This document shows, in pieces, positions 2,735 through 58,669 of a stretch of 64,000 bases of DNA. How positions within the stretch are numbered: the first letter of the stretch is position 1; each line of letters starts with the position of its first letter. The notes under the pieces are model-generated. The model was not told the origin of the DNA and ran no database searches. It was given only the letters and a program-made list of their open reading frames with translations. This DNA comes from a virus (lineage: Duplodnaviria > Caudoviricetes): the IMG/VR virus record IMGVR_UViG_3300005670_000014, positions 1-64,000 of that record; one strand, given 5' to 3'. The position numbers and the translations under genes are program-made.

Positions 2735-3256
2735 ATGAAAAAGTCAGTATTGTTTTTATGTTGTGCTAGTATTTCGGGTTGTGCGCATATTTCGCAGGCA
2801 GATTATGCACAAACTGCGGATGTCGTTACTACGGCAGTGGGTTTAAGTAATGGATTATCTGAAGCAAATTCTATTTGGGGAGATGTTAATTGGCCGGTGA
2901 TGGCCGTAGTGAAGTTAGGGGCTACCCAAGCCGTGAAATTAGCCCCGGAACCTTATTGTACTTCGGGTTTAATGGGATTGACGATTGCTGGTTATGGAGC
3001 GGCTTTTTGGAATGTTGGCGTGATGTTAGGATCAGGTCCACTTGCAATTCCTGTGGCTGTGGGTGTGTTGGGTTGGCAATGGGAAAATTTAGCTCAAGAT
3101 TCGATGGCAACGTGTAATTCTACAGGTGTAGGATTTAATTATTTTAAAAATAACTCTAAACCTTATTCTTATTCTGGACCGACGTGTCACGGTTGGGATA
3201 ATGCGCGACCAGATAGATGTGCTTCTTATTTTGTCAAACATCCAGAAAGACTTTAA
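2735..3256 (+). CDS. Putative lipoprotein/membrane protein
   Basis: MKK + hydrophobic stretch + SGC lipobox-like signal; two further hydrophobic segments. Confidence 0.55.
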   Translation: MKKSVLFLCCASISGCAHISQADYAQTADVVTTAVGLSNGLSEANSIWGDVNWPVMAVVKLGATQAVKLAPEPYCTSGLMGLTIAGYGAAFWNVGVMLGSGPLAIPVAVGVLGWQWENLAQDSMATCNSTGVGFNYFKNNSKPYSYSGPTCHGWDNARPDRCASYFVKHPERL

Positions 3257-3481: not shown

Positions 3482-4363
3482 ATGTCTCGATTGGTTAACA
3501 TTGGTAACAATGCTAAGCGAAGTGAGTCATACTACGAGATGGATCGGGATGGTTTCACATTCTTAACTATGGGATTTACGGGAGCGAAAGCGGCCAAGTG
3601 GAAATGGGATTACATCAACGCCTTTAATAAAATGGAAGAGTTTATTAAAGTGAGATCTGTTGATGATATTATCACGGATATGATTAGTGAACGGATGCAA
3701 AAGGTGGATGCGTTGTACAATCCAAAGATCAAGGAAGTGGCTGCGGAAGTGAATCGGTTGGAGCATGAAAAGGTGAGTATGTTGGGATTTGAGCAAAAAT
3801 CTTACCGAGATCGAGTGACGCAGTGCGAAAATCAAACGAATCTGGTGCAGCAGCATTTTCAAACCCATAAAATTTCTTATGGTCCGTGGATTAAGCATCA
3901 AGCGGAGATTCATTTGGAATTGTTTGGCATGACCTCCGCACAGTTCCGGCGTGAAATTGGAATTTTCGATCATACCAATATCTTAACACGAGATTTCTTC
4001 CCATATATTATTCAGCATATTTTGTATTTGGGAGAGTTAGGATTATGTGAGTTTTTTGACGAAGGCGGTGATAATCCATTTACACTGGATGATGTGTTAG
4101 AAGTTCATCGCAGTTTTGTGAATCAGCGGGTGATGGTTTATACGAGGAAGAATCCTGGATTAAATTTAAGTAATGTTTTAGTCCAGCATGTCCGTATGGT
4201 ACGGGACTTCATTGAAGGCCGACTGGAATTATCATCAATTTCTCCGTATGATACTCAGCGACAATGGCTTGAAGAACGAATTGACGTGTTGAATCAGTTG
4301 CGAGAGGAGTATCGCAAGTCTTTAGTAGTAGTAGTGCGTAAAACGCCGTATAATCCGATTTAA
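3482..4363 (+). CDS. Rha-family regulator, N-terminally truncated
   Basis: YYEMDRDGFTFLTMGFTGAKAAKWKWDYINAFNKME is the Rha core. The usual N-terminal Rha helix and an RBS are missing. Confidence 0.7.
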   Translation: MSRLVNIGNNAKRSESYYEMDRDGFTFLTMGFTGAKAAKWKWDYINAFNKMEEFIKVRSVDDIITDMISERMQKVDALYNPKIKEVAAEVNRLEHEKVSMLGFEQKSYRDRVTQCENQTNLVQQHFQTHKISYGPWIKHQAEIHLELFGMTSAQFRREIGIFDHTNILTRDFFPYIIQHILYLGELGLCEFFDEGGDNPFTLDDVLEVHRSFVNQRVMVYTRKNPGLNLSNVLVQHVRMVRDFIEGRLELSSISPYDTQRQWLEERIDVLNQLREEYRKSLVVVVRKTPYNPI

Positions 4364-4515
4364 GCCGTTCAATATCCGACTCGCTACCCGACTACTGGGT
4401 AGCGGGTTAACCCGCCCCAAATGCCCGTTTTGGGGCCAATCCTGACGTGTTTATCATTCATTGCACGGGTAGTTTTGAAGCAAGTTGTCAATGAATTAAC
4501 AGTCATAAAAATTCA

Positions 4516-4544
4516 TTGCAGTTTCAGGTACTTTAGTGTATGCT
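4516..4544 (+). promoter_or_regulatory. Sigma70-type promoter
   Basis: TTGCAG-17-TATGCT upstream of 4567. Confidence 0.45.
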
Positions 4545-4566
4545 TTTGATTGATTTATAGGAGAGT

Positions 4567-4773
4567 ATGATGGATGCAAATTTTACTGTTCAAGATGTTA
4601 TTTTAAATGCGGTAGAAGATGCACCTAGTTATTTTTTGGGTAGTGCGATAGCGTGTTTATTACGCTATCGGGTAGGTCAAGGTGCTCAACCTTTGGAAGC
4701 ATGTAAAGGGTACTTAGAGTTCTTGATCAAAATTGAAGTTGCAAATGAGGTAAAGAGTCATGCCGATTCCTGA
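4567..4773 (+). CDS. Divergent DUF3310/SaV-like small protein
   Basis: FLGSAIACLLRY...LEACKGYLEFLI resembles the LGNAIKYLWR...DLKKARWYL pattern; GGAG RBS. Confidence 0.4.
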   Translation: MMDANFTVQDVILNAVEDAPSYFLGSAIACLLRYRVGQGAQPLEACKGYLEFLIKIEVANEVKSHADS

Positions 4774-5080
4774 AAGCATCATTGATAGCGTTGCGAGTGC
4801 CAATCTGAAGAACGTAGGTGAAGCTCCTGCGTTTTATAGTGGTCTCGCCATGGGTAATGCCGTATCCGATCAGCAGGCGATGAATGTGATTCGTCAGGCT
4901 GCTGTGGGTAGCATTGTGAAGAGTCTGACCGAAGTGGACCCGTCTGAAGCGGTTGCTGCGTTGAAGATGACTTCCGGCAATGAAGTGGCCTCTACTTTGG
5001 GGCAGCTTCTGGCTGCGCTACAAAGTGGGCAGGTGGGTACTAAGGTCGCTCAAACGACGCCTCCGATTACGAGTGGTTAA
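4760..5080 (+). CDS. RebB/R-body-like protein
   Basis: IIDSVASANLKNVGEAPAF...GLAMGNAVSDQQAMNVIRQAA...LTEVD aligns with the RebB pattern as I recall it; GAGG RBS; own terminator. Confidence 0.6.
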   Translation: MPIPESIIDSVASANLKNVGEAPAFYSGLAMGNAVSDQQAMNVIRQAAVGSIVKSLTEVDPSEAVAALKMTSGNEVASTLGQLLAALQSGQVGTKVAQTTPPITSG

Positions 5081-5100
5081 GCTCTTTTGATCTGGGGTTA

Positions 5101-5124
5101 AAGGCACACTACTGTGCCTTTTTT
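5101..5124 (+). terminator. Intrinsic terminator
   Basis: AAGGCACA-CTAC-TGTGCCTT followed by TTTT. Confidence 0.8.
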
Positions 5125-5139
5125 ATTGGGAGATATTCT

Positions 5140-5613
5140 ATGAAATATTTAAGTTTGTTATTCTTATTGCCGGGAATTTTATTGGCAGCATCTCCACAAG
5201 ATGTGGTGGGTTTTATTATTAAGGTGTATGACGGAGATACTGCCACATTAATTTCTTGTGAAGGTAATATGCACAAGATCAGACTTGCTAAGATTGATGC
5301 ACCGGAATTAAAACAAGATTTCGGTAAAGAATCTAAGTTGTGTTTGTCGAACAAAATTCTGAATCAACGTGTCCATGTTATAATCTTTGAACGAGATAAA
5401 TATCGTCGTGATGTGGGAGAAATTTTCAAAGATAGTAAATCAGTGAACACGATGTTGGTGGATGAAGGCTGTGCTTGGGTGTATGAAGCATATAATAAAG
5501 ATGCTTCGTTAGACTCTTTACAAGTGAAAGCACGATTTTTGCGTAAAGGGTTATGGGAGCTTCCAGCACCAATCCCTCCATGGGTGTGGCGTAATTTACA
5601 GAAGAGTGATTGA
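5140..5613 (+). CDS. Thermonuclease (SNase-like) with signal peptide
   Basis: VYDGDT, IRLAKIDAPE, DKYRR, N..LV.EG.AW motifs; hydrophobic N-terminus; GGAG RBS. Confidence 0.9.
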   Translation: MKYLSLLFLLPGILLAASPQDVVGFIIKVYDGDTATLISCEGNMHKIRLAKIDAPELKQDFGKESKLCLSNKILNQRVHVIIFERDKYRRDVGEIFKDSKSVNTMLVDEGCAWVYEAYNKDASLDSLQVKARFLRKGLWELPAPIPPWVWRNLQKSD

Positions 5614-26748: not shown

Positions 26749-26876
26749 GAACACACTCCGTAGTAAGAGAAAAGAGTGCTAAAGATTTTATATCAGGTTG
26801 CTTTGTTTGATGTTCGGTTCTGCACTCCGATTACTACCTTCAAACAAAACAACCTTTTTATTTGGAGATTTTTAAA

Positions 26877-27758
26877 ATGATTACGTTAAAACGTCGAGAA
26901 ATAAAGCCCGTTTTAGTTTCCAATCAAGACGGTAAATTGAAAACGGATTCTTTAATTGTGGCGCGAGTGTTTGAAAAAGAGCATTTTAATCTGATGCGTG
27001 ATATTAGAAACATTACAGAATCAGATACGTATCTGAAGCGAATTAAAAATGGTACACAACCCAATTTTGAATTGTGCTTTAGAATCAATGAATTAGCCAA
27101 TGGTAAAAGAGTTCCTTACTACGAAATGGATCGTCAAGGTTTTGAAATTCTGGCAATGGGCTTTACGGGTGAAAAAGCACTAGAATGGAAATTTAAATAT
27201 TCTGATGCATTTGCTGCAATGGAAGAATTGTTGAAAAAGGAGCGTATTGTTGTTCAAGATAATCCGTTCAATTTGGAAGAGTTAGGTTTGGGATTGTTGC
27301 AAGTTGGATCTGAGCAACGACAAACAGCTAAACAGGTGCGTTGTCGTTGGGTGAACATCTTGCAAAATTCCATTGGTTGTGGAAACATCTGGGTTTGTCG
27401 TTTGACTAATGAAATCTACCAAAGTTTGTTGAATTGTCCGCAAGCAAACGCCAGAAATTTTCGTCAGCACATGAATCTTCCATTGATCTCTGCCATATTT
27501 TTGACGCGGGATCAATTAGAGGGCCACATACAGTCTTTCGTTACCGACATTGAATTGAGTGCAATCAGATTGTATTCTTTAAATCGTGAAGTCACCTTTG
27601 GCGAAATTCGGGAATTTATGTTGGGACAAGCTAAGATGTACCATAAGCAGTTGGTACGAATTGCACAGCAACCACCTTCAGCATTAGTGTTTGATCATGA
27701 ATACAATGTGGTGCCAATTCTTCCATACCGTGGAAGAAGGATGCAACAAACAGAGTAA
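26877..27758 (+). CDS. Rha-family regulator (full length)
   Basis: TDSLIVARVFEKEHFNLMRDI...PNF...YYEMDRQGFEILAMGFTGEKALEWKFKY..AF..ME; GGAG RBS. Confidence 0.85.
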   Translation: MITLKRREIKPVLVSNQDGKLKTDSLIVARVFEKEHFNLMRDIRNITESDTYLKRIKNGTQPNFELCFRINELANGKRVPYYEMDRQGFEILAMGFTGEKALEWKFKYSDAFAAMEELLKKERIVVQDNPFNLEELGLGLLQVGSEQRQTAKQVRCRWVNILQNSIGCGNIWVCRLTNEIYQSLLNCPQANARNFRQHMNLPLISAIFLTRDQLEGHIQSFVTDIELSAIRLYSLNREVTFGEIREFMLGQAKMYHKQLVRIAQQPPSALVFDHEYNVVPILPYRGRRMQQTE

Positions 27759-51026: not shown

Positions 51027-51081
51027 CAGTCCATGCACGATAATTTATATCGTGCATTTTTTATTGCCATGAGGTTTGATT

Positions 51082-54000
51082 ATGTCTTTTCAATCCGTAT
51101 CTAACTCTGTATATTCCAATAAATATCAATTGTTCGATAAGCATGGCAATGAGGTCGATGAGAGTAGAAGTCATAGTTTTATGCGAGTGGCTCAAGCATT
51201 GGCTAAAAATGAAAAAGATTGTCGATATTGGACGGATGTCTTTTTTGAAGCAATGGTGAGTGGTGCAATACCTGCTGGAAGAATTATGAGTAATGCGGGT
51301 GCTGAGGAACACAAACCAAATACTTCGCAGATCAACTGCGTCGTTGCAGATACAATCTATGACTCTATCGAATCAATTGGACAATCCGTAAAAGATTCTT
51401 TAATTACTCTATCTGGTGGTAGCGGAATTGGTTACGACTTCAGTTCTTTACGTCCCAAAGGATCTTTTGTTAATGGAGTGGGTAGCACCACATCTGGCCC
51501 GTTACCTTTTGCTGATATTTTTGATAAAGGCTGTTTTACCATTGCATCAGCCGGTGGAAGACGTGGTGCACAGATGGCAACATTTGATTTACGTCATCCA
51601 GATGTGTTAGCTTTTATTAAAGCTAAACGAGAAAATGGACGATTTCGACAATTTAATATTAGTGTGCTCGTTCCTCATTCATTTTTTAATGAAGAAAAAG
51701 ATTGGATATTTCGTTTTCCCATTCGTAGTTCTGATCCTGCATTGGATACTGCGGAAACGATGTGGGATACATGGCATATTAAAGATGCTGCATATATCAC
51801 GAATGAACATGGACAGACTTTATTTAAAATTTATGGCAAGATGCCAAAATCAGAATTATGGAATTTAATACTTCAATCTAATTATGAGTATGCTGAACCA
51901 GGTGTTATTTTTATAGATCGCGTGAACGAAGAAAATAATTTATGGTTTTGTGAAGAAATTAGAGCTTCTAATCCGTCAATGCCAGCGGGAACTTTGGTAC
52001 ACACCAATCTTGGTATTTTGCCTATTGAAGAATTAGAAAATCAACTTTTTTCAGTAAGATCTTTAGATGGTTGTTGGGCACCTGCAAGTTGTCGTTTGTC
52101 AGGAGAAGCCGAAACTCTTATGGAAATTAATTTTGGTAACTATAAGACTATCCAAGCTACACCTAAACATCTATGGCCGGTTTTAAATTCTTTTGGAAAA
52201 ATTGTAAAGAAAGAAACTAGTGAATTAAAAGCTGGTGATTTAATTCCTCTCAATCTAAATCTTCCATTAGAATTCAATGTAGACCCTACATTGACTGAAG
52301 ATGAGGGATTTTTAGTGGGCGTTTTTATGGGAAATGGCTGGCTTTCATCCCGCGTTGATGGTACAGGTTATGCTTTTGGGATTAGTTTTAACAAGTTGGA
52401 TATTAAAGTAGCTGAAAGAACCCTGTCAATTTTAAATCAGTACAAAAACAATCCTTCGTCCATCAAGGAAAATGCACATGAATTAAGTATTCAACTTACT
52501 TCAAAGGCATTTATTGAATGGTTTATGTTGCGTTTTGGAATTTTTCCTAAAACTAAAGATTTACCTTTAGTTTTATTTAAAAGCAATGATTACTTCATTC
52601 GAGGTTTTATTGATGGGTTGTTTTCAACGGATGGCAGTATTTCTGAAGGCAATGATTTTCGTGGAGGTTGTATAATTTTTAGTCAAAAATCAGAGTCTTT
52701 TACTATGAACTTAGCTAAATTGCTGAGTTTTTATGGAATAAAAACATCTGTTTGGAAAACTGAAAGTTCTAACACTGTATTTCCAAATGGAAAATCGTAT
52801 AATAAAAGTTACACAGCTTTCGCTGTGAAACTTGCTAATTCAGCATCAAAAGCATTTGCTTCGTTATTTAATTTAACTTGTGAAAGAAAACAAGCAAAAT
52901 TAGATTTTTTGGTTTTAAGAAAACCAAAAAAATCTAAAATAACAAATCTTTATAATGAAGTAAAAACTGTTACATATGTTCAAGGTGCTCATAAAGTTTG
53001 GGATATTTCAGTACAACATGATCAACATGTTTTTCCAACTGAATGGGGTTATACAGGAAACTGTGGCGAACAGATGCTTCCACCAAACAATTCATGTTTA
53101 TTAGGTTCTATTGATCTGACTCAGTTTGTTGAACAACCTTTCACGGATGATGCTCATTTTGATTTCAGTAATTTTTCCAACACTGTAGATGTATTTACAC
53201 GAATGTTGGATAATGTAGTAGAGTTTAATAATTTACCGTTAAAGTCTCAACAAGATGAAATTTTACAAAAACGTCGGCATGGAATGGGCTTTTTTGGTTT
53301 AGGCTCTGCTTTAATTATGCTGTGTATTCATTATGATTCTAAAACAGCGTTAGACTTTGCAGAAAAAGTAACGAAATTGATGGCAATTCGTGGGTATGTC
53401 ACGGGTTGTGCATTGGCTGAAGAAAAAGGTTGTGCACCCGTACTGAATGAGTATTTTGAGATTACTCCAGAGATTGTTAGAAAGAATGAATTATTTAAAG
53501 ATCAGTTAGGACAAAAAGTTAAAGGTATTGAATTATTTTTGGCAAGTCCATACATGCAACGTTTATTAGCAGATGAACCTGAATTAAAAGATCGATTGTT
53601 GAGACATGGCTGCCGTTTTAGTCATCACACCTCTATTGCACCTACGGGTACAATCTCTTTAGCATTTGGAAACGGAGCATCTGGAGGTATCGAACCTTCT
53701 TTCTCCCATTGTTATTTTCGTAATTTAACAGTACAAGATAAGAAAACTCGACAACAGGAAGCCGTGTACAGTAAAGAGTTTTTGTTGTATAAAGAATTAT
53801 ATGGACAAAATAAAACGGACGAAGAATTGTTAAAACATCTACCGGATTATTTTGTGACTGCGGATACCATTTCATGGAAAGCCCATATAGACATGGTGGC
53901 TGTCGTACAAAAGTGGGTGGACTCTTCAATTAGTAAAACCTGTAATGTACCCACTAATATTACTTTAGAAGAGTTTAAAGGTATTTATGATTATGCCTAT

Positions 54001-54225
54001 AAAGTAGGTTGTAAGGCAGTCTCCACATTTCGTTATAATCCTGAAACTTTAGGGTCGATTTTAAGTCGAAGTGAAGACTTAGCCAATAGTAGGTATGAAT
54101 TTAAATTAGCTGATGGTACGGTGATCCAATGTGCAGGTGGTGATCGTGTTGAATACGATGGTGAAATAACCACGGCTGAAAATTTGTTTTCCGCTTTGAA
54201 AGAGAATACTTATGGAAAATTCTAA
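51082..54225 (+). CDS. nrdJ: Class II (B12-dependent) ribonucleotide reductase large subunit, intein-containing
   Basis: PAGR, NC, GGGIG, RRGAQM, EPGVIFID, split NP|CGEQ, C.LGSI, IAPTGTIS, DSSISKT. Confidence 0.92.
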   Translation: MSFQSVSNSVYSNKYQLFDKHGNEVDESRSHSFMRVAQALAKNEKDCRYWTDVFFEAMVSGAIPAGRIMSNAGAEEHKPNTSQINCVVADTIYDSIESIGQSVKDSLITLSGGSGIGYDFSSLRPKGSFVNGVGSTTSGPLPFADIFDKGCFTIASAGGRRGAQMATFDLRHPDVLAFIKAKRENGRFRQFNISVLVPHSFFNEEKDWIFRFPIRSSDPALDTAETMWDTWHIKDAAYITNEHGQTLFKIYGKMPKSELWNLILQSNYEYAEPGVIFIDRVNEENNLWFCEEIRASNPSMPAGTLVHTNLGILPIEELENQLFSVRSLDGCWAPASCRLSGEAETLMEINFGNYKTIQATPKHLWPVLNSFGKIVKKETSELKAGDLIPLNLNLPLEFNVDPTLTEDEGFLVGVFMGNGWLSSRVDGTGYAFGISFNKLDIKVAERTLSILNQYKNNPSSIKENAHELSIQLTSKAFIEWFMLRFGIFPKTKDLPLVLFKSNDYFIRGFIDGLFSTDGSISEGNDFRGGCIIFSQKSESFTMNLAKLLSFYGIKTSVWKTESSNTVFPNGKSYNKSYTAFAVKLANSASKAFASLFNLTCERKQAKLDFLVLRKPKKSKITNLYNEVKTVTYVQGAHKVWDISVQHDQHVFPTEWGYTGNCGEQMLPPNNSCLLGSIDLTQFVEQPFTDDAHFDFSNFSNTVDVFTRMLDNVVEFNNLPLKSQQDEILQKRRHGMGFFGLGSALIMLCIHYDSKTALDFAEKVTKLMAIRGYVTGCALAEEKGCAPVLNEYFEITPEIVRKNELFKDQLGQKVKGIELFLASPYMQRLLADEPELKDRLLRHGCRFSHHTSIAPTGTISLAFGNGASGGIEPSFSHCYFRNLTVQDKKTRQQEAVYSKEFLLYKELYGQNKTDEELLKHLPDYFVTADTISWKAHIDMVAVVQKWVDSSISKTCNVPTNITLEEFKGIYDYAYKVGCKAVSTFRYNPETLGSILSRSEDLANSRYEFKLADGTVIQCAGGDRVEYDGEITTAENLFSALKENTYGKF
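51976..53061 (+). mobile_element. Intein with LAGLIDADG endonuclease (362 aa) in NrdJ
   Basis: ASNP|SMPAGTLV...TEWGYTGN|CGEQ; LVGVFMGNG and FIDGLFSTDG motifs. Confidence 0.9.
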
Positions 54226-54841
54226 AATTGTACAAATTAAAAGTCCCATTGTTGATTTCAAATACTTGGGAGATTCTAATGAGAGTTCAATTTCTAAAGA
54301 ATTGTCAATGGAAAAGTTATGCGAGACAACGGAACGTCCAGCGATTCTCGAGGGAAGAACCTATAAATTACGATCTCCAGTGTACGATGCCGCCTTGTAC
54401 ATTACCATTAACGACATTATCCTTAATCACGGTACTGAGCATGAGCAAAAACGACCGTTTGAGATTTTCATTAACTCAAAAGCCATGGAAAGTTTTCAGT
54501 GGATCGTTGCTCTCACACGAATGATCAGTGGTGTGTTTCGTAAAGGGGGCGATGTTACTTTTATTGTAGAAGAATTAAGAGCTGTTAACGATCCAAAAGG
54601 CGGTTATTGGAAAAAAGGGCAGTATATTCCCAGTATTGTGGCCGAAATTGCTTTAGTCATTGAAGAGCATTTCATTCAATTGGGATTATTAACAGCCACG
54701 GAAAAGCCCGTTGCCGTGGTTGAACCCGCAGTAAAAGATTTACCTGCTATGAGAATCTGTCCTAAATGTAATATGCCTACATTGACACGGGAATCAGGAT
54801 GTGATAAATGTTTATCATGTTCTTGGTCAAGGTGTGGATAA
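54212..54841 (+). CDS. nrdJb: NrdJb (TSCPD domain + C-terminal Zn ribbon)
   Basis: RP..L.G.TYK...ALYITIND...RPFEIFINSK...ALTR.IS.VFRKGG; CPKC...GC..C..C..SRCG. Confidence 0.9.
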   Translation: MENSKIVQIKSPIVDFKYLGDSNESSISKELSMEKLCETTERPAILEGRTYKLRSPVYDAALYITINDIILNHGTEHEQKRPFEIFINSKAMESFQWIVALTRMISGVFRKGGDVTFIVEELRAVNDPKGGYWKKGQYIPSIVAEIALVIEEHFIQLGLLTATEKPVAVVEPAVKDLPAMRICPKCNMPTLTRESGCDKCLSCSWSRCG

Positions 54842-55540: not shown

Positions 55541-55992
55541 TGATGAATATTATGACCCCGGCTGAAGCTTTTGAACGTTATTATGATTTAGGTGTTAAGC
55601 GTAATTTATTACGTTTATCTAAGATCATTGGTATTGAATTTGATTTATTGTCCAGTTGGGCGGATGGTTATGCATGGGATGAAAAAGTTGAAGCACGGGA
55701 TAAAGAAGTTAATCGAGTTTTTGAACAAGTATACAAACAACGTACTTTAGACATTCGAAATCGACTAGTAAGACAGATTGATACTTTATTAAAAGATATG
55801 GAAAGTTGTAGTTTGGGGTTGCCATTCGGGGTAACGTCTCCTGCTGAATTACGTTCAGTTGCACAGGCGTATCGAGAGTTAGTTCAAGCGAATGTATTAG
55901 CGATGACTAAAGGTGTGGATATGGGTGGTGGTAAAGCGCCTAAGACTTGGAGTGATTTGTTAGAGCAAATTGAAAATACGGAAACTGAATGA
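55540..55992 (+). CDS. Putative terminase small subunit
   Basis: AFERYYDLG..R.L..LS...L..WA..Y.W.E..EARD HTH pattern, directly before terL. Confidence 0.55.
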   Translation: MMNIMTPAEAFERYYDLGVKRNLLRLSKIIGIEFDLLSSWADGYAWDEKVEARDKEVNRVFEQVYKQRTLDIRNRLVRQIDTLLKDMESCSLGLPFGVTSPAELRSVAQAYRELVQANVLAMTKGVDMGGGKAPKTWSDLLEQIENTETE

Positions 55993-55993
55993 C

Positions 55994-58669
55994 ATGGATC
56001 GTAAAAAGAATTGGAAAAGTGAACTTGTTTTACGTGGACGACAAGATCCAGCTTGGTGGATTGAGAGTGTTTTAGGTGGAAGTCTTTGGGAAAAACAAAA
56101 AGAGATTTGCAAAGCTTTAGTTAAGTATGAAAGAGTCGCGGTAGCAGGTGCGTTTGGCTTTGGCAAATGTGTTGCTTTTGGTGAGCGCATAGTACTTTCC
56201 AATGGCAATGTTGCTAACGCTGAAGATTTGATTGGTAAATCTTTTAAAGTTCTTGCTTGGGATGAAAAAACTGGACAACAAATCGAAGCTGAGGCTTTTG
56301 CTGAAGATAATGGTTTAAAACCAGTTTGTAAGATCACTACTAAATCGGGGCGTTGCATTATTCGTACTGAAAACCATCCTTTATACACTTGCTATCTTCC
56401 AAAACGAAATGTTCATCGGATACCAACATTGCCAAAATGGAGACCTATTAATAATTTAAGGGGTAATATGGTTGTTGCCGTACCTTTGAAATTGAATGTT
56501 TTAGCAACAAAAACAATTACAGAAGATGAAGCTAAGTTGATTGGCTATTTATTGGGAGATGGCGGTACGACAACTGGTATAACCTTTACACAAGAGTTGG
56601 GAAAAACTCTTGATGATTTTAGAGATATTGTTAATCGTTTTAACTGTGATGTTATCAAAAAAACTGATTCACGATACGATTATCGTGTGATTGGACGTGA
56701 ACGTACTGAAGATAATATAAATAGATACAATCCACTGTTGGAAAAATTTCGTGCATGGGGATTAATTGGACATAAAGCTAAACATAAATATTTACCAGAT
56801 TTTATTTGGGAATTAAATGATGATTCTTTAGCTTTAATTATGAATCGTTTATTTGCTTGTGACGGTTGGGTGTATATACCAAAAACAGATCGTGAAACAT
56901 CTAGAATTGCTATTACTTTAGCATCTGAAAAATTAATTCGTGATATTGAATTAGTGATGCTTCGTTTGGGTATTTATGGAAATGTTTCTTATGGACAAAA
57001 AACTTGCAATGGTAAAAAGTTTGACGCTTGGACTTGGCAAGTTTTTAAAGGTGTAGAAGTTTTAAAATTTATTGATCGTGTTGGAATTTTTGGAAAAGAA
57101 ATTAAATTAGAAAAATGTCGTCAATTTGTTTTAACAAAAACCAGTTTTAAGCATACACTGGAATGGCCTTTTAAAAGTCTTCCAGAAGGTTATGCTTGGG
57201 AACAAATAAGATCGATTGAATATTTAGGATTGCAACCAACTGTGGGTATTTGTGTACCGGAATATAATACGTACTTGACTACGTTTGTAGAACATAACAC
57301 TCATTTGGCCGCGAGATTAATGTTATGGTTTTTGCTCTGTCATCCAAATTCTAAAGTAGTATCCACGGCTCCCACACAGAGGCAGGTGAAAGATTTACTT
57401 TGGTCAGAATTACGTGCAGCACATGCTAAAGCAATTATGCCGTTAGGTGGAGAACTTTTACAGTTACAATACAAATTGGGCGAAGATCATTTTGCGGTTG
57501 GTTTTAGTACAGATTCTGAAAATATAGATCGATTTACGGGCTACCATGCACCTCATCAGTTGGTAGTTTTTGATCAAGCTGGAGGTATTGATAGTCCAAT
57601 TTGGGAAGCCGCAGAAGGTTTAATGACTTCTGCAAATTGTCGTTGGTTAGCTATTTCCAATACAGCTATTTCCAGTTGCGAATTAGCTAACATCTGTATG
57701 CCAGATCGTAAAACCAAGTTTGGTGACTGGCACGTTATTCGGGTAAAAGCAACTGAAACGCCTAATGTCTTAGCTGGTAAAAATATTTATCCCGGTTTGA
57801 TTGCTTATGATTGGGTAAAAAAGCGTGAAGAAGCTTGGGGTCGGGATGATCCATTATACAAAATCTTCGTAGAAGCAGAGTTTATTCCTGACTCTGAAAT
57901 GGTGGTTGTACCGTACAAAGCGATTGTTGATGCATTCAATATGAATGGGGAGTTGGGTTCGCATATTGAAGTGGGCTTAGACGTAGCGCGAATGGGGACG
58001 GACAGTACCGTATGGACTGCGGTTAGTGGTTCACGGGTGATGGAAGTCAAGCGAGTCACGGGCAATACCACCATGCAAGTGGTAGGTTTGACGGTAGAGT
58101 TTGTAAAGCATTTACAAGAAACTTATGGTTTACCCGTAACTGCGGTAAAGATTGACGTAATTGGTTTAGGTGCGGGTGTATATGATCGATTGATAGAATT
58201 GGATGACGACAATATTGAAATTCCCGTAGTGGCAGTCAATAATGCGGAAGTCAATATTGTGGTAGATAAAGAACGTTATTCTAATGTTCGTGCGGAGATG
58301 GCTTGGGCATTTCGTTATCGAATTGATCATGGTAATGTGGGATTGGCGGCGGTACAAGTTCACGATTATGAAATTAAAGAGTATATTCGTGGTGATATTC
58401 AAGCCATGCGTTATAAGATCACTTCACAAGGTAAGATTCAGTTATTACCCAAAGAAGAACTTAAAAAGAATTTAGGACGATCTCCTGACTATTGGGATTC
58501 ATTAGTTATGGCATTTGAAACACCGGGTGGTGGACCTCCGATGCTGGAATCGATATCTTCAAAGAAAGAACGTGAAGAAGAGTTTTCAATTTCAGAAGAA
58601 GAGTGGCAAATTTTAATGGGTACGCGGATGCCCATGGATGATCGATTTTTCCGAGACGTACAATTTTAA
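55994..58669 (+). CDS. terL: Terminase large subunit, intein-containing
   Basis: VAVAGAFGFGK|T Walker A, APT.RQ, VVFDQA.G Walker B-like, ISN, GLDVAR.G.D nuclease, D..D at the C-terminus. Confidence 0.9.
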   Translation: MDRKKNWKSELVLRGRQDPAWWIESVLGGSLWEKQKEICKALVKYERVAVAGAFGFGKCVAFGERIVLSNGNVANAEDLIGKSFKVLAWDEKTGQQIEAEAFAEDNGLKPVCKITTKSGRCIIRTENHPLYTCYLPKRNVHRIPTLPKWRPINNLRGNMVVAVPLKLNVLATKTITEDEAKLIGYLLGDGGTTTGITFTQELGKTLDDFRDIVNRFNCDVIKKTDSRYDYRVIGRERTEDNINRYNPLLEKFRAWGLIGHKAKHKYLPDFIWELNDDSLALIMNRLFACDGWVYIPKTDRETSRIAITLASEKLIRDIELVMLRLGIYGNVSYGQKTCNGKKFDAWTWQVFKGVEVLKFIDRVGIFGKEIKLEKCRQFVLTKTSFKHTLEWPFKSLPEGYAWEQIRSIEYLGLQPTVGICVPEYNTYLTTFVEHNTHLAARLMLWFLLCHPNSKVVSTAPTQRQVKDLLWSELRAAHAKAIMPLGGELLQLQYKLGEDHFAVGFSTDSENIDRFTGYHAPHQLVVFDQAGGIDSPIWEAAEGLMTSANCRWLAISNTAISSCELANICMPDRKTKFGDWHVIRVKATETPNVLAGKNIYPGLIAYDWVKKREEAWGRDDPLYKIFVEAEFIPDSEMVVVPYKAIVDAFNMNGELGSHIEVGLDVARMGTDSTVWTAVSGSRVMEVKRVTGNTTMQVVGLTVEFVKHLQETYGLPVTAVKIDVIGLGAGVYDRLIELDDDNIEIPVVAVNNAEVNIVVDKERYSNVRAEMAWAFRYRIDHGNVGLAAVQVHDYEIKEYIRGDIQAMRYKITSQGKIQLLPKEELKKNLGRSPDYWDSLVMAFETPGGGPPMLESISSKKEREEEFSISEEEWQILMGTRMPMDDRFFRDVQF
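56168..57298 (+). mobile_element. Intein with LAGLIDADG endonuclease (377 aa) in TerL
   Basis: GK|CVAFGE...VEHN|T; LIGYLLGDG and RLFACDG motifs. Confidence 0.92.

Follow-up and report, generated by a model that had tools for sequence, protein, structure and literature searches.

A RebB-family gene in the two-gene cassette of a tailed phage and the phage-borne subfamily to which it belongs

Introduction

The association of R-bodies, the spring-like protein ribbons made by bacteria, with phage-like particles goes back to early electron microscope studies of the endosymbionts of Paramecium. A gene resembling those for R-body subunits in what appears to be a phage genome therefore raises two questions: is it truly a member of the Reb family encoded by a phage, and if so, what might a phage do with its product? 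The DNA analysed here (the window) comprises 64,000 nucleotides, positions 1 to 64,000 of the IMG/VR virus record IMGVR_UViG_3300005670_000014 (the full record being designated G000). The original prediction, made from the letters of the sequence, placed in it a phage-encoded RebB-like gene, present in a single copy and forming its own expression unit. In what follows we describe the gene and its product, the phage and the cassette in which the gene is found, a large set of phage-borne relatives, and the explanations that may be offered for its presence.

A RebB-family gene

The open reading frame in question (4760-5080, plus strand) has an ATG start and encodes a protein of 106 amino acids, hereafter Reb. 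Its sole hmmscan match is to the Pfam RebB profile (PF11747, 'Killing trait') with an E value of 1.3e-10 and a score of 41.6 bits, the curated gathering cut-off being 24 bits, and residues 7-60 cover positions 1-65 of the 68 in the profile. The search with a RebB HMM that had been proposed as a check on the assignment thus gives a clear match, and when all six frames of the 88,785-bp record are scanned with PF11747 only one locus is found (45.3 bits summed). As a canonical reference we used the reb locus of the Caedibacter taeniospiralis plasmid pKAP298 (L040, taken from PLSDB), in which three coding sequences, for proteins of 81, 105 and 114 amino acids, carry the annotation 'RebB family R body protein'. 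In BLASTP comparisons Reb is 28% identical to the 105 amino acid pKAP298 RebB (L040:593-907, minus strand) over 102 amino acids (E 8e-10), with a single gap of 11 residues immediately after the ...PAF motif. The peptides on which the family assignment was first based are found in this reading frame, and the deletion of about 11 amino acids that was proposed to separate them turns out to be exact. Blocks of conserved sequence are common to Reb and the RebA, RebB and RebD proteins of pKAP298 in a multiple alignment, whilst hhalign comparison of a profile of 28 close homologues with nine canonical Reb proteins (from pKAP298, a Magnetovibrio MAG and a Vibrio replicon) returns a probability of 97.6% and an E value of 3.7e-12 across columns 1-61. 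The reading frame at 4760-5080 is therefore confirmed as a bona fide RebB-family gene.

The protein can be divided into a Reb core (residues 1-61), in which the helix-1 motif N-x-K-x-V-G-E-x-P-A-F and the helix-2 motif N-A-V-x-x-Q-Q are brought together by the 11 amino acid deletion, two further helices (residues 62-99) and a conserved K-x-A-Q-T-T-P-P tail (residues 95-106). The possibility that the C-terminal half is an internal repeat of the core was rejected, as hhalign gives this a probability of 0.2%. AlphaFold2 models of the monomer have a pLDDT of 64.8 when built from 28 sequences and of 78.6, with a pTM of 0.37, when built from 127, and predict a 53-residue helix (residues 5-57), shorter helices at 61-72 and 75-99 and a disordered proline-rich tail. 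These locally confident helices lack a defined tertiary arrangement, a combination to be expected if the subunit folds as it assembles, and the monomer model is compatible with a fold of that kind. Foldseek searches of the PDB and BFVD with the model reveal no structural neighbour, and a sequence search of the PDB yields spurious matches only (E>1), with no R-body protein detectable.

The phage and its genomic setting

PHROG matches identify the window as the DNA of a tailed phage, with genes for the large terminase (TerL, 55970-58669), portal (58733), protease (60348) and major head protein (61772) and further matches to ribonucleotide reductase (RNR), primase, an SbcC-like nuclease and QueE. 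A 472 amino acid protease/scaffold-type gene adjoins the capsid gene, and a 4662 amino acid reading frame occupies the tape-measure position further along the record, beyond the window; the claim that Reb is phage-encoded is accordingly well founded. No tRNA genes are present within the window. The record itself is linear, with a CheckV completeness of 68%. A sister phage (G001, 111 kb, reached through contig L003) that is 60-80% identical to it at the DNA level overlaps both of its ends, suggesting a genome of ~155 kb. No integrase or resolvase (tyrosine or serine recombinase) was found in either phage by searches whose controls were positive, suggesting that the phage is probably virulent and weakening any reading of Reb as a lysogenic-conversion gene in this phage. 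Exactly one Reb gene is detected in G000 (88.8 kb) and one in G001 (111 kb) with subfamily and canonical profiles at E<=1, and as G001 covers the part of the genome missing from G000, the gene is indeed single copy.

Reb lies at the end of a rightward block containing fibre-like, lipoprotein-like and Rha-like genes, close to the point at which transcription changes strand and the leftward early genes begin. The fibre-like genes upstream (1031-2329, 2343-2603 and 2735-3253) have no Pfam match. The window contains two Rha/antirepressor-like genes (3482-4363 and 26862-27758, both plus strand); the first of these is adjacent to the Reb cassette and its N-terminus matches only positions 46-91 of the Phage_pRha profile, the C-terminal half, suggesting that the gene may be 5'-truncated or remodelled.

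Several other features of these genomes deserve mention in their own right. The large terminase reading frame (plus strand) encodes 899 amino acids and terminase profiles match residues ~444-856 only, the 440 amino acid N-terminal extension perhaps being a fusion, an intein or the result of a mis-called start. The gene for the RNR large subunit (51076-54841, plus strand) seems to be interrupted: a 1049 amino acid reading frame matches RNR at residues 12-301 and 590-989 and a 209 amino acid frame following it matches the RNR C-terminus, suggesting an intein or intron-type insertion. In the sister phage, ~50 kb of minus-strand genes (G001:C1:12000-61000, L042-L045) separate the tail genes from the fibre/Reb block, in the part of the genome that is missing from G000.

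The two-gene cassette

Reb does not stand alone. A 68 amino acid partner ORF (4567-4773, plus strand) overlaps the start of Reb by 14 nt, and the Shine-Dalgarno sequence GAGGT (4746-4750, plus strand), which ends 9 nt before the Reb ATG, lies within it and is identical in G001. This arrangement makes Reb the second cistron of a two-gene cassette, and translational coupling of Reb to the partner ORF is likely on the same grounds. The cassette ends in an intrinsic terminator (5100-5130, plus strand) with a 9-bp stem (5100-5121, AAAGGCACA-CTAC-TGTGCCTTT) followed by a T-run; in G001 a terminator is found in the same position with a different stem sequence. The strong ribosome-binding site and the terminator of the original prediction can thus both be recognised, whilst the expression unit that it envisaged is Reb's own with respect to the terminator but is shared with a second gene.

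The partner ORF was found upstream of Reb in only two other places, G001 and a prophage (L036, phmmer E 1.8e-16). It has no Pfam match at E<=1, to the DUF3310 profile (PF11753) or any other, but a language-model search of the ESM Atlas provides a lead to DUF3310 (score 0.92, 214 shared features), and the protein may on this basis be a DUF3310-like small phage protein. That it might be a hidden Reb paralogue was rejected: the Reb HMM finds no match in it and its phmmer relatives are its own orthologues only.

The intergenic leader upstream of the cassette (4364-4566, plus strand) is the presumed promoter region and shares blocks of sequence with G001, including TTTTGGGGCCAATCCTGAC at 4428-4446 and AAAAATTCATTGCA at 4507-4520. 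Its sole sigma-70-like site (4485-4512) is weak, scoring 9/12, and has a different spacing in G001. The phage has ~20 early-promoter cassettes, but these are of the minus-strand TTGCAA-N17-TAAAAT type and the conserved block upstream of the Reb cassette is unique within the window, so one of these as the driver of the cassette was rejected. Two to three hairpins are seen directly 3' of the stop codon of the Rha-like gene (4385-4440 in the window, L003:7620-7680), for example GCTACCC-GACTAC-TGGGTAGC. The first of these is swapped in the sister phage for another self-complementary sequence (GCTAGT-CC-ACTAGC), a covariation that would fit the conservation of an RNA or terminator structure.

Beyond the Reb terminator, 60 nt downstream of Reb, is a gene for a staphylococcal-nuclease homologue (5140-5613, plus strand; Pfam SNase E 6.5e-22) with a signal-peptide-like N-terminus, MKYLSLLFLLPGILLAASP. 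A secreted nuclease is unusual for a phage. The adjacency is retained in G001, where the protein is 58% identical (57.8%), but the gene is absent from other Reb loci, and a role for the nuclease as Reb-associated cargo is not supported.

Selection and hints of expression

Of the 51 reciprocal-best orthologue pairs in G000 and G001, none is as well conserved as Reb and its partner. Reb is 98.1% identical at the amino acid level in the two phages, with a dN/dS of 0.06 and a dS of 0.38, and is under very strong purifying selection; the partner ORF is 94.1% identical (dN/dS 0.12, dS 0.21). The flanking genes are much less similar (the nuclease at the level given above, the lipoprotein-like gene at 70.2% and the fibre-like gene at 60.6% amino acid identity). 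The cassette also has dS values far short of those of most genes, which are nearly saturated at 1-2.5; this suggests recent exchange, codon constraint or both, although recent exchange could be the whole of the explanation.

Reb differs from the genome in base composition, with a GC content of 52.6% (50.5% at third codon positions, GC3) compared with 39.2% for the genome, whilst the partner ORF is typical at 38.6%. The GC3 of the major head gene is 44.2%, making it the only other late gene examined with a raised value; TerL, portal, protease, RNR and tape measure fall between 17 and 30%. The capsid-like codon style attributed to Reb is therefore borne out in part, as its GC3 does set it beside the capsid gene, but the high value could be due to some extent to an Ala/Gly-rich composition or to a foreign origin. 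Across the phage loci, terminator-like hairpins follow 11 of 37 Reb units compared with 33 of 701 other genes at the same loci (Fisher p 2.6e-6), an enrichment that persists after related loci are collapsed (about 6/30 lineages, p 0.004). Taken as hints, the good Shine-Dalgarno sequence, the capsid-like GC3 and the adjacent terminator suggest that Reb may be made in large amounts.

A phage-borne Reb subfamily

Far from being the isolated case for which it was first taken, Reb belongs to a large subfamily carried by phages. A word-indexed search identified 28 proteins of ~105 amino acids that are 52-99% identical to Reb, and when 1.84 billion representatives were searched exhaustively with a HMMER profile, 535 clusters were recovered at E<=1e-3, 205 of them at E<=1e-10. 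Relatives were located by pattern scans on 32 IMG/VR viral contigs and five genome contigs. Wherever the context of a subfamily member was annotated it proved to be a phage or a prophage, in most cases a morphogenesis module. (The Magnetovibrio MAG locus, L039, is a canonical bacterial reb locus that was used as a comparator and falls outside the subfamily.)

The position of the gene within these modules varies. The L005-L018 group has the order portal, capsid/protease, head decoration, major tail protein, Reb, chaperone-like ORFs and tape measure, with Reb in L009 and L017 located between the major tail protein and the chaperone/tape-measure genes. Reb itself was rejected as the tail assembly chaperone of this group since L009 has an overlapping, frameshift-like pair of reading frames between Reb and the tape measure. 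Elsewhere, TerL is followed by one Reb gene (L021, L034) or by three in tandem (L020), or is immediately preceded by Reb (L029); the portal is followed by Reb and then a short Reb (L019); Reb is found after portal and capsid (L033), between head and neck genes (L033 and the prophage L035, the latter with the order protease, capsid, Reb) or ahead of a ParB-methyltransferase, a virion protein and TerL (L011). In the prophage L036 the order is integrase, partner, Reb, protease/capsid and major tail protein. This last is a prophage-like contig in a Competibacteraceae MAG (L036:489-8039) in which the integrase, a 68-80 amino acid partner, Reb, a protease/capsid fusion and the major tail protein are packed into ~8 kb; with no terminase or portal between the integrase and head genes, it may be a satellite-like or reduced element.

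Reb genes occur in more than one copy in several of these phages. Three tandem paralogues of 117 amino acids are found 3' of TerL in L020 (3970-5221, plus strand), only the first of which has the TTPP tail. In L004 (4955-5556), L012 (8001-8616) and L019 (8001-8614) a Reb-like gene for a 105 amino acid protein is followed by a shorter paralogue (78-82 amino acids) that has neither the helix-1 motif nor TTPP, recalling the long/short pairing of RebB and RebD in pKAP298. L032 (7353-8576, plus strand) has two tandem Reb-like genes encoding 184 and 194 amino acids in which the C-terminal module, TTPP included, is internally duplicated, so that each protein has two TTPP-ended modules.

What unites the subfamily is its architecture. 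The spacing between the helix-1 and helix-2 motifs is 8 in Reb and in every scorable viral copy but 19 in the scorable copies from pKAP298, Magnetovibrio and Vibrio, a difference that marks the subfamily without excluding homology. A C-terminal [T/S/V]-T-P-P, 2-11 residues from the end, is present in 33 of 40 viral copies but missing from all nine canonical copies, and residues N15, K17, K95 and P102 are each at least 90% conserved in 127 diverse members. Six members were scanned against Pfam, and only the Reb of the window clears the cut-off, making it the closest of the six to canonical RebB; L017 scores 20.9 bits and the Reb-like proteins of L012 (the short paralogue), L020, L029 and L032 have no Pfam RebB match. 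A tblastn search with four members found no match in 50,697 GenBank phage records, blastn of the Reb region matched only Rha/antirepressor fragments, and comparison of Reb with PHROG gave no structural annotation, only a weak match to phrog_32040, a family of unknown function. That most divergent members fall below the Pfam cut-off, and that the four members searched have no tblastn match in GenBank phages, is probably why the branch has been missed. A search of the literature (Reb or R-body with phage, and PF11747) likewise found no paper describing it; the RebB family is itself known, and what seems to be new is this branch, borne by phages and prophages and distinct in its architecture. Prophages of the subfamily are binned with diverse hosts, in Competibacteraceae, Planctomycetaceae and Nitrosomonas MAGs. 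Most of these groups are not known R-body producers.

What might the phage Reb protein do?

The explanation that we favour, though we place it somewhat short of an even chance, is that Reb is the subunit of an abundant, self-assembling Reb-type homopolymer made during lytic infection. Reb would be transcribed together with the 68 amino acid ORF as a cassette closed by its own intrinsic terminator and carried by a probably virulent siphovirus of ~155 kb, and the extended helical subunit would self-assemble into a ribbon or filament in the infected cell alongside virion production. By analogy with bacterial R-bodies, the polymer might then rupture the membrane at egress or harm a protist that has swallowed the infected cell. 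The tandem paralogues of other phages lend support to a Reb-type homopolymer as they mirror the paralogue clusters of bacterial reb loci. Against it stands the single copy of Reb in this phage, since the R-body of Caedibacter is said to require RebA, RebB and RebC (PMC13689365). The 11 amino acid deletion and the new C-terminal tail could, furthermore, change the assembly of the protein altogether.

The frequent placement of Reb among the head and tail genes of other phages would be no less compatible with a role in the virion or its assembly. Reb could be a virion-associated or assembly protein (scaffold-like, internal, or part of a decoration or fibre) whose K-x-A-Q-T-T-P-P tail is a docking peptide for the capsid interior, portal or tail. 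It is found within the morphogenesis modules of unrelated phage lineages (L020, L021, L034, L019, L033, L035, L009, L017 and L029) and closes a block with fibre-like genes in the phage of the window; the protein is small, all-helical and extended, as are many scaffolding proteins, and its tail is the most invariant part of the subfamily. This recurrent placement, together with an invariant tail that may be a docking peptide, keeps such a role in contention, but we regard it as unlikely on balance: the position of Reb varies between lineages, unlike that of core virion genes, a protease/scaffold-type gene is already present beside the capsid gene, several loci have two to three tandem Reb copies, and there is neither a PHROG structural annotation nor a structural match to a viral protein.

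Rather less probable still is that Reb is a non-polymerising mobile accessory gene, or moron, perhaps encoding a helical binder of a host target and resembling Reb proteins by ancestry only. The terminator of the cassette, the GC content of Reb, its differing genomic position among phages and a dS far under that of its neighbours, which suggests recent exchange between phages, would all sit comfortably with this. Residues found across the superfamily are nevertheless retained (D-S-V, N-x-K, P-A and N-A-V-x-x-Q-Q), the paralogue arrays of its relatives are typical of co-polymerising subunits, and the codon and terminator signals suggest production in large amounts, which would be unusual for a regulator. 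It has also to be considered that Reb is a hijacker or poison of host R-bodies that co-assembles with, nucleates or caps a host Reb polymer, and both its single copy and its standing as the nearest to canonical RebB of the six Pfam-scanned members could be taken this way. We think this very improbable, as the phages and prophages that carry the subfamily are binned with very diverse hosts and the conserved, subfamily-specific C-terminus argues for an independent function. Finally, although a short, Ala/Gln-rich protein can in principle produce compositional matches, chance resemblance or a non-coding reading frame is refuted by the Pfam score above cut-off, the hhalign E value, the 535 related clusters and the low dN/dS.

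Genuine tailed phages and prophages therefore carry Reb-family genes, often in the late morphogenesis module and under strong purifying selection, and the old question of a phage origin for R-bodies is thereby made testable. To this the case described here adds a member that is the nearest of the six Pfam-scanned to canonical RebB, a quantified measure of selection, a two-gene cassette with a conserved terminator and a probably virulent phage of ~155 kb. A bolder proposal, and one that we consider doubtful, is that tailed phages build R-body-like ribbons of their own, that the phage branch is sister or ancestor to bacterial reb, with classical R-bodies descending from a phage late protein, and that the homopolymer acts in lytic infection as a mechanical aid to egress or as a weapon against protists ingesting infected cells. 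Were a single phage subunit of 106 amino acids able to polymerise into an extensible structure, no simpler actuator of the R-body type would be known. The use of R-bodies as protein pistons in synthetic biology has been discussed as an area of application (PMC13689365), and a one-gene phage actuator would, if real, be of interest there.

Comparison with known systems

The closest point of reference is the type-51 R-body operon of pKAP298. The phage protein is in the same length class (106 amino acids compared with 105 for RebB and 114 for RebA), shares the I-x-D-S-V, N-x-K-x-x-G-E-x-P-A, N-x-V-x-x-Q-Q and S/E-V-D blocks and is, like them, predicted to be all-helical. It differs in the 11-residue deletion, in the C-terminal extension ending in K-x-A-Q-T-T-P-P, which none of the nine canonical proteins has, in being encoded as a single copy without paralogues of the RebA, RebC or RebD type, and in its location in a tailed phage rather than on a chromosome or plasmid. 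R-bodies are refractile coiled ribbons that extend when triggered by pH or a chemical. An R-body system is expected to comprise at least two clustered Reb paralogues, and as neither G000 nor G001 has such a cluster, 'R-body' serves here as a working analogy and the gene is best filed as a subfamily of the Reb family.

The same family is represented in the bacterial reb clusters surveyed by Raymann et al. (PMC3583457), in that of Pseudomonas aeruginosa PA14 (PMC13733733) and in those of a six-species survey (PMC13689365), whose subunits are of 7-15 kDa and whose paralogue arrays have counterparts in some of the phage relatives. Those clusters are multi-gene loci on chromosomes or plasmids with regulators, assembly factors and toxins, whereas each subfamily context examined here is a phage or a prophage. 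Older proposals of a phage origin for R-bodies were summarised by Raymann et al. (2013). Their own survey, the only systematic one, searched phage genomes explicitly without detecting a Reb homologue and saw no prophages in the surroundings of reb loci, with the undersampling of phages given as a possible reason (PMC3583457). A 2026 survey stresses the lateral transfer of reb operons and does not report phage-encoded Reb (PMC13689365), whilst a preprint of the same year interprets as toxins the holins, GH24 lysozymes, HNH endonucleases and contractile-injection components that it lists at distances of up to 10 kb from rebP1 homologues (PMC13733733). In the light of the phage Reb genes described here, some of these rebP1-homologue loci may be prophages.

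A second comparison is with phage morons. These are autonomous accessory units in late operons, as in the lambdoid and HK97-like phages, and the Reb cassette resembles them in being compact, with its own terminator, in its variable position, often within structural modules, and in its signs of recent exchange. Its composition is atypical in the same way, although this is a property of Reb and not of the partner ORF. Unlike morons, Reb is found in both sister phages, with no presence/absence polymorphism, and is exceptionally conserved, so that it does not look dispensable.

Lastly, the ribbon proteins of the cryptomonad ejectisome (trichocyst) are Reb homologues, according to Yamagishi et al. 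(2012) as cited in PMC3583457. Going by that description, the ejectisome, although a eukaryotic organelle, offers a likeness to the phage case in that Reb-family proteins appear to have been recruited outside bacterial R-bodies, there for the building of a coiled ribbon.
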